DNA of 32,879 bases from a virus (taxonomy: Duplodnaviria; Heunggongvirae; Uroviricota; Caudoviricetes), in IMG/VR virus record IMGVR_UViG_3300022178_000016; one strand, written 5' to 3'. A model generated the notes under the pieces. That model made no database searches, was not told where the DNA came from, and saw only the letters and a program-made list of their open reading frames with translations. Both the position numbers and the translations under genes were made by a program. Below are positions 9,603 to 26,513 of this stretch, in pieces (positions within the stretch are counted from its first letter, which is position 1; each line of letters starts with the position of its first letter).

Positions 9603-9971
9603 ATGGACAGCAGTAAGTTAATGGTTATAAATGAGATTAGTTCAGAAATCCGTAAGTTAAATGATAAATGGTGGTGTGATTTAACTACAGGAGAACCCAT
9701 AGTACGTAATGTCGGAGAATTACTTTGTCTGGTTCACAGTGAGATTAGCGAGGCTATGGAGGGTCACAGAAAGAATTTGATGGATGATAAGCTCCCACAT
9801 AGGACAATGTTTGAAGTTGAATTAGCTGATACAATGATTCGACTGTTTGATATAGCTGGAGGTTTTAACTTAGACCTAGCAGGGGCTATTATAGAGAAGC
9901 TGGAGTATAATAAAGTCCGTGAAGATCACAAGCCAGAGAATAGATTGGGGGTAAATGGTAAGAAATATTAA
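9603..9971 (+). CDS. MazG-like nucleoside triphosphate pyrophosphohydrolase
   Basis: LVHSEISEAMEG...EVELADTMIRLFDIAG (ExxE...ExxD acidic motifs of the MazG/all-alpha NTP-PPase fold). Confidence 0.85.
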   Translation: MDSSKLMVINEISSEIRKLNDKWWCDLTTGEPIVRNVGELLCLVHSEISEAMEGHRKNLMDDKLPHRTMFEVELADTMIRLFDIAGGFNLDLAGAIIEKLEYNKVREDHKPENRLGVNGKKY

Positions 9972-9979
9972 AATAACCC

Positions 9980-10007
9980 TTTACAAATAAATAAATTAGT
10001 GTAGTAT
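9980..10007 (+). promoter_or_regulatory. sigma70 promoter driving tRNA-like RNAs
   Basis: AAATAACCC-TTTACA-N16-TAGTAT; the 16-bp AAATAACCCTTTACAA is identical to 630-645. Confidence 0.75.
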
Positions 10008-10033
10008 TAATAACAAGCCCTTGGTGACAGGGG

Positions 10034-10112
10034 CATTTCTAAAGTCTTCTGGCATGGAAGTAAAAGGTAGCTCCTTTAAGGGTTCGAGTCCCTTCAGAAG
10101 ACTTTAGAAATG
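10034..10112 (+). ncRNA. minimal tRNA-like RNA with 18-bp closing stem
   Basis: Perfect 18-bp inverted repeat 10034-10051/10095-10112 enclosing GCATGGAAGTA, hairpin AAAGG-TAGCT-CCTTT and T arm AAGGG-TTCGAGT-CCCTT. Confidence 0.65.
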
Positions 10113-10122
10113 AATAAATTAA

Positions 10123-10210
10123 GTCCGGTGTACCCACATCATTCTTCTAAAGTGATGACATTAAATAGTGGGATGGAAGTCAAGTGGTTCGATACCACCA
10201 CCGGATACCA
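10123..10210 (+). tRNA. non-canonical D-armless tRNA-like RNA, anticodon TCT (Arg)
   Basis: Acceptor GTCCGGTG/CACCGGAT + A + CCA; T arm GTGG-TTCGATA-CCAC; anticodon arm CATCATT-CTTCTAA-AGTGATG; no D arm. Confidence 0.65.
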
Positions 10211-10235
10211 AACAACACAAACAAGAGGATTCTTT

Positions 10236-10430
10236 ATGAACACTTACAATCCAGAAACACATGTGGCTGTCCCTAAGACTGAGTTAGTTAAATTAGAAGA
10301 TAGTCGTATTCGGATTTATGAGTTTCTACGAGATGAGGGTTTCTTAGAATCAATACATAACCAGTATGTTATGGAGAATATAACCCGACAAATCTGGGAA
10401 GTAGCTAATAAACTTAAATGGGAGAATTGA
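10236..10430 (+). CDS. hypothetical protein
   Basis: Start re-placed at ATG 10236 (MNTYNPET) after GAGG SD; the listed extension overlaps the tRNA-like RNA. Confidence 0.75.
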   Translation: MNTYNPETHVAVPKTELVKLEDSRIRIYEFLRDEGFLESIHNQYVMENITRQIWEVANKLKWEN

Positions 10431-11436: not shown

Positions 11437-11994
11437 ATGAAACCTTTATTATTCATTATCCTAATAGGGTTGAGCCTTCCTATAAAGCCCGTAGAGCCAC
11501 GTTATGCAGGTTACCTAGGCAATCCTATTACCGAGGTTAAGAAAGAGCTTGTAGAGCCTTCTACTGAGGTACAAAAGGTCGCTGTGATTACAGATGACCC
11601 TGACACATGGACTGAACATGAGTGTTTGGCAAGGAATGTCTACTGGGAGAGCAAGGGGGAGGGTGTTAAGGGTATGGCACTAACCGCTCAAATCACCCTA
11701 AACCGTGTCAACAGTAATAAGAGGTATTTTCCTAATACTGTATGCCAAGTAGTTAGACAAAAACTCACTAGAGGGTGCAGCTTTAGTTGGTTCTGTGACG
11801 GTAAGTCAGATAAACCTAGAGAGTTGGCAAGGTTTGAAGAAGCAAAAGAAGTTGCAACAAAGGCTTTACAAGGTGAGTACAAGGACTTAATAAAAGTAAA
11901 GTATTATAAGCGTTGTGACACTCCCAGTGACTTCTTCAATACTCTTGTTTATAAATTTAGGTATAAGAATCACTGTTACTACTCAGAGGGTTGA
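11437..11994 (+). CDS. SleB/Hydrolase_2 family cell wall hydrolase with N-terminal hydrophobic anchor/signal
   Basis: CLARNVYWESKGE...LNRVNS...FPNTVCQVV...C(S)FSW; catalytic Glu in the YWES motif. Confidence 0.9.
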   Translation: MKPLLFIILIGLSLPIKPVEPRYAGYLGNPITEVKKELVEPSTEVQKVAVITDDPDTWTEHECLARNVYWESKGEGVKGMALTAQITLNRVNSNKRYFPNTVCQVVRQKLTRGCSFSWFCDGKSDKPRELARFEEAKEVATKALQGEYKDLIKVKYYKRCDTPSDFFNTLVYKFRYKNHCYYSEG

Positions 11995-12010
11995 GGGGAG
12001 GGTATTTAAT

Positions 12011-12805
12011 ATGAAGGACATTAAGAGTTTAGAACTTAGTAAAGACTTACACGGACTGTGGACAGACCCCACTGATTTAATCAGTAAACAGTACAATGGG
12101 TGTATTATTATTGAGTATTGTGGATGGGCGTGGGACGTAACAAAAAGAAGGAAACACTGGTATAAGATAGAATGTTTTTGCGGGGCACCATTCTACACCA
12201 ATCACACGATGCTGCGGTACAACTCCATCAAAGGTTGTGGTTGTTCTAGGGAGTCTTCTAGTAAAACCCATAACAGAAGTAATGATAAGGTCTACAGGAA
12301 CTATCATGGGATGTTAAATAGGTGCTATAACCCTAAACACGATGCGTATGATAACTACGGTGGTAGAGGTATCCGTGTCTGCGATAGGTGGCGTATGAAG
12401 GTACAAGGGTTCTATAACTTCCTAGAGGACATGGGGGAGATTCCTGAGGGGTTAAGCTTAGACAGGATTGACGTTAACGGAAATTATGCACCTGATAACT
12501 GTAGGTGGGCAACTAAAACAGAACAGAATTATAATCAACGAAAGAGGAAAGATAACACTTCAGGGGTTACTGGGGTTAGGTTGGAACCTAGGTACAATAC
12601 TTGGGTTGCTTCCATAAGAATTAACAAGAAAATTATACATCTAGGTTCTTACAAAACCCGCTATGAGGCATATTTAGCTAGGATTGGAGGGGAATTACTA
12701 CACTATGGCGTAATAAAACAGCCAGTTTTTAATACTGAGGAAGACTTTTATAAGTATATACAAGGCTATGTTCAAAGTCTGTCAATTCTCCTACTGGAAC
12801 AATAA
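12011..12805 (+). CDS. free-standing HNH homing endonuclease (HNH plus AP2-like C-terminus)
   Basis: MLNRCYNP...YGGRGIRVCDRW...SLDRIDVNGNYAPDNCRWAT...QN...DNTSGVTGV; start at ATG 12011 after GGAGG. Confidence 0.9.
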   Translation: MKDIKSLELSKDLHGLWTDPTDLISKQYNGCIIIEYCGWAWDVTKRRKHWYKIECFCGAPFYTNHTMLRYNSIKGCGCSRESSSKTHNRSNDKVYRNYHGMLNRCYNPKHDAYDNYGGRGIRVCDRWRMKVQGFYNFLEDMGEIPEGLSLDRIDVNGNYAPDNCRWATKTEQNYNQRKRKDNTSGVTGVRLEPRYNTWVASIRINKKIIHLGSYKTRYEAYLARIGGELLHYGVIKQPVFNTEEDFYKYIQGYVQSLSILLLEQ

Positions 12806-25837: not shown

Positions 25838-26048
25838 ACTTGAAGATAAAGTTCTCTACGCAATTGTAAATAAAACTACTGGAGAAGCTTGGGGGGATGA
25901 CACATACTCTTCTCCTACAGGATGTAAGACCTCTTGGTTTCATGCTAAGAAGTATTATGACCGTGAAGCTAGAGGCTACAAGACAATCAAATTTGATGAT
26001 CAAGATGAGTATGAAATTATTAAAGTAAAATTAGTGAGGTGCTTATGA
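25830..26048 (+). CDS. hypothetical protein
   Basis: 72 aa, overlap-coupled. Confidence 0.75.
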   Translation: MSKLEDKVLYAIVNKTTGEAWGDDTYSSPTGCKTSWFHAKKYYDREARGYKTIKFDDQDEYEIIKVKLVRCL

Positions 26049-26212
26049 GTAACAAACTTTATGTCGCTAACAATGAGTTTGAAGGTGCCTTTATTGGAAC
26101 CTTCAAACAAATAGAAGAACGGATGCAAGAACAAGGATGGCAGCTTTGGTCTACCAAGTTCTATGTTGTTGGTGAAGAGGTGGCCGTTGGCCTTGGTATT
26201 CTCCATGAGTAA
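26045..26212 (+). CDS. small hypothetical protein (55 aa, not in ORF track)
   Basis: MSNKLYVANNEFEGAFIG...; GAGG SD; fills the gap with overlaps on both sides. Confidence 0.7.
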   Translation: MSNKLYVANNEFEGAFIGTFKQIEERMQEQGWQLWSTKFYVVGEEVAVGLGILHE

Positions 26213-26513
26213 TTTATTTAACAAGATTAAAGAACTGACTGAAGAAATTCAATATGCAGTTTCATTTGAACCTTATGAGTGTGCTTGGTATCAAACTGAA
26301 GATGAGATTTACTGGAACACAGACTCTAATCTTGAAGAACTTTACGATGGTAATGGATCAACTTATTCAGGAGAACTTATTGAGGGTACTCATATTCAAG
26401 ATGGCTGTTACTTTGTAAACTTGGATAATGGATGTGGACAAACTATAACCAGAGTTTTCCTTGAGAATTTAGAAGTTGATTATGGGGATTTGGAGGAGAT
26501 GTTTGATGAGTAA
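26205..26513 (+). CDS. hypothetical acidic protein
   Basis: Start at ATG 26205 (MSNLFNKIK). Confidence 0.75.
   Translation: MSNLFNKIKELTEEIQYAVSFEPYECAWYQTEDEIYWNTDSNLEELYDGNGSTYSGELIEGTHIQDGCYFVNLDNGCGQTITRVFLENLEVDYGDLEEMFDE

Follow-up and report, generated by a model that had tools for sequence, protein, structure and literature searches.

A putative tRNA-Arg(UCU) gene with a rewired, pseudoknotted D-domain in a 96.9-kb tailed phage and in other phages

Features of the locus

The window is the whole stretch of DNA that was analysed, 32,879 nucleotides from a tailed phage (IMG/VR record IMGVR_UViG_3300022178_000016). The genome of this phage is 96.9 kb in size and complete, with direct terminal repeats and a GC content of 38.5%. 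Pfam and PHROGs searches near the RNA locus identified only two genes, which encode a MazG-like NTP pyrophosphatase immediately upstream (9603–9971, + strand) and an HNH endonuclease 1.7 kb downstream (11915–12805). A sigma-70-like promoter, identified by a consensus scan only and no better than expected by chance for this region, is found at 9980–10007 (+), with the elements TTTACA and TAGTAT separated by 16 nt. It could drive a transcript holding the upstream hairpin and the tRNA gene.

The tRNA gene is an 88-nt unit at 10123–10210 (+), and is the sole copy of its family in the genome. Its 5′ portion consists of GUCCGGUG, UA, CCCAC, A, UCAUU, CUUCUAA, AGUGA, U, GAC and the linker AUUAAAUA; this is followed by GUGGG, AUGGAA, GUC, AA, GUGG, UUCGAUA, CCAC, CACCGGAU, A and CCA. 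Inspection of the sequence confirmed the elements listed in an earlier sequence-only reading: the 8-bp acceptor, the discriminator A, the CCA, the 4-bp T stem, the CUUCUAA loop and the pairing of CCCAC with GUGGG are all present. Only 8 nt (UA CCCAC A) lie between the acceptor and anticodon arms, and the partner of CCCAC lies 30 nt downstream. There is thus no contiguous D hairpin between the acceptor stem and the anticodon arm, as there would be in a canonical cloverleaf.

A second tRNA-like unit lies directly upstream at 10035–10111 (+), preceded by a small hairpin at 10017–10034. It has a perfect 18-bp stem, a 5-bp T arm (AAGGG, UUCGAGU, CCCUU) and a mini hairpin (AGG-UAGCU-CCU), has no CCA, and folds far better than shuffled sequences (z = −4.9). 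It has in common with the tRNA gene the octamer AUGGAAGU, which in the tRNA gene precedes the T arm, and the 9-mer UUCUAAAGU, which in the tRNA gene is part of the anticodon region. Because this 9-mer is shared, the 3′ strand of the upstream stem could pair with the anticodon loop. A blastn search of the phage records gave no homologues of the upstream unit and a pattern scan returned ordinary tRNAs only; its role may lie in RNA processing or stability, or it may be a derived paralogue. A match to mascRNA (Rfam, E ≤ 10) on the upstream hairpin is at chance level, and was rejected.

The tRNA gene is not detected by standard tools, as the sequence-only reading had expected. ARAGORN reports no tRNA genes in the window. 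None of the Rfam 15 families matches at gathering thresholds, and nothing related to tRNA matches around the site at E ≤ 10. Over the whole 96.9-kb genome at E ≤ 10, RF00005 finds a single tRNA-Trp elsewhere and nothing at 10123–10210.

Relatives of the unit

When folded alone, the unit is only modestly better than its shuffles (z = −1.9), and the case for its fold therefore rests on its relatives. The intergenic region was compared by blastn with 50,697 phage records. Only this unit was matched, in copies 77–80% identical, from Vibrio phages D260, D254 and D51, Acinetobacter phages phiAB441 and MD-2021a, and Zobellviridae phage HSd1. The homologues in annotated phages are intergenic, and in each GenBank record examined (D260, phiAB441, HSd1 and Felix O1) the family copy is unannotated.

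We then scanned viral contigs, metagenomes and prokaryote genomes with sequence patterns, and filtered the matches with a covariance model built here (R1). This brought the total to 37 distinct sequences from phages, viral contigs and metagenomes. The contigs range in size from 1 kb to 424 kb, and the sampled habitats are marine, freshwater, soil and gut. One member is from a Pasteurellaceae genome, where it probably sits in a prophage, since a P22-type antirepressor gene adjoins it. The window unit matches the five-helix R1 model over its full length (106.6 bits, E = 6e-30), with all five helices and an arginine anticodon. Since CCC.CA and CAU.AA..AG.GGG were prescribed by the search patterns, invariance there is partly a matter of ascertainment; the covarying positions were left free. 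A loose 14-base pattern produced mostly chance matches, and two loci from the genome scan (L167 and L170) matched the pattern and not the R1 model.

The family is widespread, and the phages that carry it range from podophages of 41 kb to jumbo phages of 424 kb and include relatives of Felix O1. The nearest named relative of the window's phage, Alteromonas phage PT11-V22, is 66% identical to it over the polymerase and primase genes, and contains neither tRNAs nor a family member, which indicates that the gene is an accessory acquisition. No conserved protein partner was found using Pfam and PHROGs, and the neighbours vary between phages. HNH endonuclease genes follow the member directly in phiAB441 and in Felix O1, an adjacency that fits a cassette-like horizontal spread between unrelated phages. 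We note that in Acinetobacter phages a MazG-like gene is immediately downstream of the tRNA-Arg position (L002 3635–4323 and L295 1438–2127), and is split into two ORFs in phiAB441; this recurrent MazG neighbourhood may be coincidence or linkage.

A five-helix pseudoknotted fold

The 37 sequences support five helices by covariation. Standard pairs make up 99.2% of the 925 pair cells, and 19 of the 25 pairs show compensatory changes, in which both sides differ. The covariation score is 0.72, compared to 0.20 for shuffled alignments, none of which (0/500) reached 0.72; when the helix partners were slid, the score was only 0.07–0.12. The pairing is therefore not a product of chance. All four of those proposed in the sequence-only reading hold in the relatives; the fifth, which it had missed, is added here.

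The acceptor stem pairs 10123–10130 (GUCCGGUG) with 10199–10206 (CACCGGAU) over 8 bp, of which the first is a G.U pair in the window unit; seven of the eight pairs are compensatory and 99.3% of cells are paired. The 4-bp T stem pairs 10184–10187 with 10195–10198 (GUGG/CCAC, three of four pairs compensatory), making up with the loop UUCGAUA a T arm at 10184–10198. Together these form an 8/4 branch. The alternative 7/5 arrangement would need an A.C mismatch that is invariant in this subfamily, whereas no member lacks the pair between G8 and position 77 (36 have G-C and one has G.U), and we have therefore rejected this arrangement here; the divergent variant from Felix O1 does look 7/5. The discriminator A and encoded CCA are at 10207–10210, and CCA is encoded in 35 of the 37 members. 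The member on IMG/VR contig 3300025887_000069 (L162) ends in CCG rather than CCA.

The anticodon arm (10139–10155) has a 5-bp stem, pairing 10139–10143 with 10151–10155, in which all five pairs are compensatory, and a CUUCUAA loop at 10144–10150 with the anticodon UCU at 10146–10148. The 7-bp anticodon stem described in the sequence-only reading can form only in the window copy, and is not a property of the family, which keeps the canonical five pairs: of the outer bases, C10137 is part of the CCCAC/GUGGG helix and G10157 pairs in the pseudoknot.

The remaining two helices are long-range. CCCAC (10133–10137) pairs with GUGGG (10168–10172), and is 100% paired with covariation, occurring in other members as CCCUC/GAGGG, CCCCC/GGGGG and CCACC/GGUGG, although three of its pairs were fixed partly by the search pattern. 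The fifth helix pairs GAC (10157–10159) with GUC (10179–10181), and is also 100% paired across the 37 sequences. It occurs in six combinations (GAC/GUC, AGC/GCU, GGC/GCC, GUC/GAC, ACC/GGU and CAC/GUG), with four pair types at the middle position. As its strands are interleaved with those of CCCAC/GUGGG, the molecule is pseudoknotted. Between CCCAC and the anticodon stem, A10138 stands opposite a pyrimidine (10156), resembling the 26/44 pair of tRNA.

The long-range strands can be read in terms of tRNA architecture. CCCAC appears to occupy the topological place of the 3′ strand of the D stem, running through A10138 into the anticodon stem, and GUGGG that of the 5′ strand. The AUGGAA that follows (10173–10178) would then be a shortened D loop, with A14-like, G18G19-like and A20/A21-like bases; the GG is present in 36 of the 37 sequences. 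The excursion formed by AUUAAAUA, GUGGG and AUGGAA is closed by GAC/GUC. A single base separates this helix from the anticodon stem and two bases separate it from the T stem; this would be the place of the variable arm. On these placements, a D stem and D loop are present, built from the 5′ connector and an enlarged variable-arm loop. The sequence-only reading had described the unit as lacking a D arm: the D hairpin is indeed absent, but a D-stem equivalent and a D-loop-like A-GG-A are there in rewired form. Its description of the unit as a rearranged tRNA is supported. The 8-nt A-rich linker AUUAAAUA (10160–10167) is conserved, with A38, U39, A41 and A42 invariant, in part because the search pattern forced this; it may make groove or triple contacts.

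The same reading can be followed in silico. No native sequence (0/37) is called by ARAGORN, nor is any strand-swap control. When GUGGG and AUGGAA are moved in front of CCCAC, ARAGORN calls a tRNA-Arg in 32 of the 37, although this is a soft test, as any stem and loop put at this place helps ARAGORN.

A mechanical, ATG-started ORF (10110–10430) spans the unit. This ORF and the silence of the tRNA finders could be taken to indicate a decaying tRNA pseudogene, or the 5′ part of a protein-coding gene. Compensatory changes in five helices across 37 sequences are, however, incompatible with either decay or coding constraint. The homologues, as noted above, are intergenic, and a better start is available at ATG 10236, after the RNA and preceded by AAGAGGA, which is likely to be where the real gene behind the RNA begins. 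Nor do the relatives carry a normal cloverleaf at this place with a decayed copy in the window; they have the same covarying fold, and a cloverleaf is found only as a clean replacement (see below). We consider the pseudogene or coding explanation to be very improbable.

Anticodons and identity elements

An anticodon census was made from two patterns that leave the anticodon free. The 37 members have UCU (33), ACG (2, in L163 and in the second copy in L164), CCU (1, in L220) and UCG (1, in L225), all of which are arginine anticodons. Only two of the nine single-base neighbours of UCU are arginine anticodons, and these are the two observed. In the anticodon loop, C32, U33, C35, A37 and A38 are invariant in all 37 sequences, giving a loop of the form C-U-NNN-A-A; at position 36, 34 members have U and three have G.

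The determinants for bacterial ArgRS are A20, C35, U/G36 and N73, and the main determinant in Escherichia coli is A20, following G18 and G19 (PMC9976931). The members carry the arginine identity set at the anticodon, with C35 throughout and U or G at position 36. An A directly follows the GG in 36 of the 37, and would correspond to A20 in three dimensions. The discriminator base is G in 19, U in 13, A in four and C in one. The T loop never varies at its U55-like and C56-like positions, and only one of the 37 lacks the G53-C61-like pair. In its sequence and fold the unit therefore has the hallmarks expected of a functional tRNA: a 12-bp acceptor/T branch, a UUCRANY T loop, a 7-nt anticodon loop, U33, a purine at 37 and CCA.

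Genomic context of the family

Family members occur within phage tRNA arrays, 3–8 nt from ordinary tRNAs. For example, one (L007) is 3 nt before a tRNA-Tyr, another (L039) is 8 nt before a tRNA-Met, and the L163 member lies between tRNA-Gln and tRNA-Ser on a 2.25-kb contig with an array of 11 tRNAs.

The members are complementary to the canonical tRNA sets around them. None of six tRNA-rich phages or contigs, some of which are incomplete contigs, has a canonical tRNA that shares the anticodon of its member. Vibrio phage D260 has 17–18 canonical tRNAs, none of them for arginine, and a UCU member. The 424-kb jumbo phage has about 55, including Arg ACG (two), CCG and CCU and not UCU, with a UCU member. 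A 73-kb contig has 26 canonical tRNAs covering all 20 amino acids, with ACG as its only arginine anticodon and a UCU member. L164 (19 canonical tRNAs) and L163 (11) have no canonical tRNA-Arg, and carry ACG and UCU members and an ACG member respectively. Felix O1 has 25 canonical tRNAs, with ACG as the only arginine anticodon and a divergent UCU member at 25951–26032 (40.9 bits). In L116, a canonical tRNA-Arg(UCU) is present, and the family is represented only by a 5′-truncated remnant.

Several further tRNA-like units were seen in these genomes. The Felix O1 member (Salmonella phage, NC_005282, L292) is 82 nt long with a 7/5 branch, a 3-bp CUC/GAG helix and a UCU loop. It is absent from the annotation, in which an HNH endonuclease CDS (26003–26395) begins inside it; this CDS start may be wrong. 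In D260 (L126), an unannotated tRNA-Cys-like gene at 34504–34576 is directly upstream of the family member, with loop UUGCAAA, U73, CCA and an irregular D region. It is missed by ARAGORN, and scores 36.6 bits with RF00005; this phage contains no other tRNA-Cys. The same phage has an irregular tRNA-like unit at 26333–26415, between tRNA-Leu and tRNA-Pro. Right after the member on L162, RF00005 matches two stretches not called by ARAGORN (1236–1313 and 1649–1765), one with a CUUCUG-type loop and one of 117 nt that is possibly a tRNA with an insertion. In the 424-kb jumbo phage (L159 10431–10518 and L147 1501–1575), ARAGORN reports a tRNA with a four-base anticodon (caca) and a CUA tRNA labeled Pyl; the latter is of amber suppressor type, and the two together hint at recoding or frameshift suppression.

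Acinetobacter phages provide a direct comparison with a canonical gene. In TaPaz and Ab3-TPeters, a canonical tRNA-Arg(UCU) lies in a slot between a DNA-polymerase exonuclease gene and an NTP pyrophosphohydrolase gene, and this slot contains no family member. In phiAB441, the same slot holds a member followed by an HNH endonuclease gene, with flanks 89–91% identical and no canonical tRNAs in the phage. phiAB441 and TaPaz differ very little in the 70 nt upstream, a stretch with a TTGACA...TCATTAT promoter. As judged from these sequences, this is an allelic swap with the canonical tRNA-Arg(UCU), a clean replacement without any decay series.

The window's phage itself would have a use for such a tRNA: of its arginine codons 32% are AGA and 22% are AGG, and its sole other tRNA is tRNA-Trp.

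Discussion

The product of the gene is probably an elongator tRNA-Arg(UCU) that works in translation, reads AGA and AGG codons, and has a D-domain rewired by way of a pseudoknot. On the proposed model, the phage supplies this tRNA for its many AGA/AGG codons. The features with which host enzymes make contact are kept: the 12-bp 8/4 branch, a T loop of standard form, an anticodon arm of 5 bp and 7 nt that includes C35 and U36, an A next to the GG pair on its 3′ side, and CCA encoded in the gene. CCCAC, as the 3′ half of the D stem, would directly follow the acceptor stem and continue into the anticodon stem, and GUGGG, as its 5′ half, would come with AUGGAA after the anticodon arm, in an enlarged variable region closed by GAC/GUC. 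Stacking of CCCAC/GUGGG onto the anticodon stem, with the GG extending to the T loop, would reproduce the L shape of tRNA. RNase P and 3′ trimming enzymes would release the unit from its transcript, host ArgRS would charge it by way of C35, U36 and the A20-like base, and EF-Tu and the ribosome would accept it. The predicted L shape, charging and decoding rest on identity elements and on genomic substitution patterns. The gene would move horizontally among unrelated phages, often beside HNH homing endonucleases, and could replace a canonical tRNA-Arg(UCU); a possible gain from the rewiring is escape from a tRNA-targeting nuclease or modification enzyme.

The sequence-only reading had offered two alternatives, a nuclease-resistant decoder of AGA codons and a decoy. 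As a decoy, the RNA would be a tRNA-Arg mimic acting outside translation, with anticodon loop, T loop and CCA end retained for soaking up an anticodon nuclease, a toxin that modifies CCA ends, or a synthetase, and the host's own tRNA-Arg would thereby be shielded in the infected cell. Standard tRNA models are blind to the fold, and in three complete phage records the member is the sole or nearly sole tRNA-like gene, as a counter-defence gene might be. Colicin D attacks all tRNA-Arg isoacceptors, and against a nuclease of this kind arginine-type loops would be selected in a decoy too. However, a decoy would have no reason to avoid a canonical tRNA with the same anticodon, as the family does in the six tRNA-rich phages; nor does it readily explain the one-for-one replacement of a canonical tRNA-Arg(UCU) behind the same promoter, or the decay of the family where a canonical copy exists (L116). 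A loop decoy would also be able to dispense with the 12-bp acceptor/T branch, the A20-like base and the C35/N36 set, all of which the family retains. We therefore think a decoy unlikely, and favor the decoder because of the arginine-only anticodons, the complementarity with canonical tRNA sets and the allelic swap.

Given a working tRNA-Arg, one may ask whether the rewiring was itself selected, for escape from a tRNA-targeting defence or from a phage-induced purge of tRNAs. The wide spread of the gene in unrelated phages, with 77–80% identity among those of Vibrio and Acinetobacter, a member of the Zobellviridae and the window's phage, together with the replacement of a perfectly good canonical gene, suggests that it confers a selective advantage. 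Evasion of tRNA-cleaving defences by phage tRNAs has been documented in the case of other specificities (PMC13096335, PMC12851939). Against this, no defence that targets tRNA-Arg(UCU) by way of its D arm was identified in this analysis, and both the spread and the replacement could come about without any benefit from the fold, because a neighboring HNH endonuclease could account for both. Selection for escape is therefore a tentative addition to the decoder model, which we hold to be somewhat doubtful.

The closest known counterpart is the canonical tRNA-Arg(UCU), of the E. coli argU type and as found in TaPaz and Ab3-TPeters. It shares with the rewired unit the UCU anticodon, C35, U36, A37, the T loop, the 12-bp branch, the GG-A motif and CCA and, in Acinetobacter phages, the genomic slot and promoter. 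The rewired unit differs in having no contiguous D hairpin, since the strands of its D stem are split by the anticodon arm, in its 3-bp pseudoknot and 8-nt A-rich linker, and in an 8/4 rather than a 7/5 branch. It is 88 nt long, compared to 75–77 nt for canonical tRNA-Arg, and only the rewired unit is invisible to RF00005 and ARAGORN.

Mukai et al. (2017) described (8/4) tRNAs, some of which come from phage tRNA clusters and show an enlarged variable region (PMC5389517). These and the allo-tRNAs have the same 8-bp acceptor, 4-bp T stem and 12-bp branch as the rewired unit. However, they keep a D arm and a cloverleaf, have been reported as Ser, His, Cys or Sec-like, and include no pseudoknot and no Arg (PMC5389517). 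The rewired unit shares their 8 + 4 branch, and has neither the D arm, the hairpin variable arm nor the Ser/His/Cys/Sec identity.

Mitochondrial tRNAs without a D hairpin resemble the rewired unit in this respect, and some carry UCU and read AGN codons. In contrast to it, they are small and flexible with a short connector, have Ser identity and adapted mitochondrial partners, have no compensating long-range helix or pseudoknot, and are not used by bacterial ribosomes. The tRNA-like structures of plant viruses of the TYMV type are aminoacylatable, L-shaped tRNA mimics that have a pseudoknot, are not cloverleaves, and are recognized by host tRNA enzymes. Their pseudoknot, however, builds the acceptor arm at the 3′ end of the genome; they have no free decoding role and are unrelated in sequence.

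According to a 2024 paper, all known bacterial tRNAs are cloverleaves (PMC11551756). We found no description of a tRNA such as this one in bacteria or phages in the PMC and bioRxiv literature, and the fold is absent from Rfam 15. It is fairly likely that bacterial ArgRS, EF-Tu and ribosomes make routine use of this family as a natural elongator tRNA whose core is pseudoknotted and not a cloverleaf. Natural near-isogenic pairs are at hand in phages of the TaPaz and phiAB441 types. If this reading is true, the tRNA would be the first of its kind outside mitochondria, and would provide a scaffold ready for tRNA engineering and orthogonality. The apparent gap at tRNA-Arg(UCU) in phage tRNA arrays would be explained, the bacterial translation apparatus would be seen to tolerate a rewired tRNA core, and the rule that bacterial tRNAs are cloverleaves would need to be revised.
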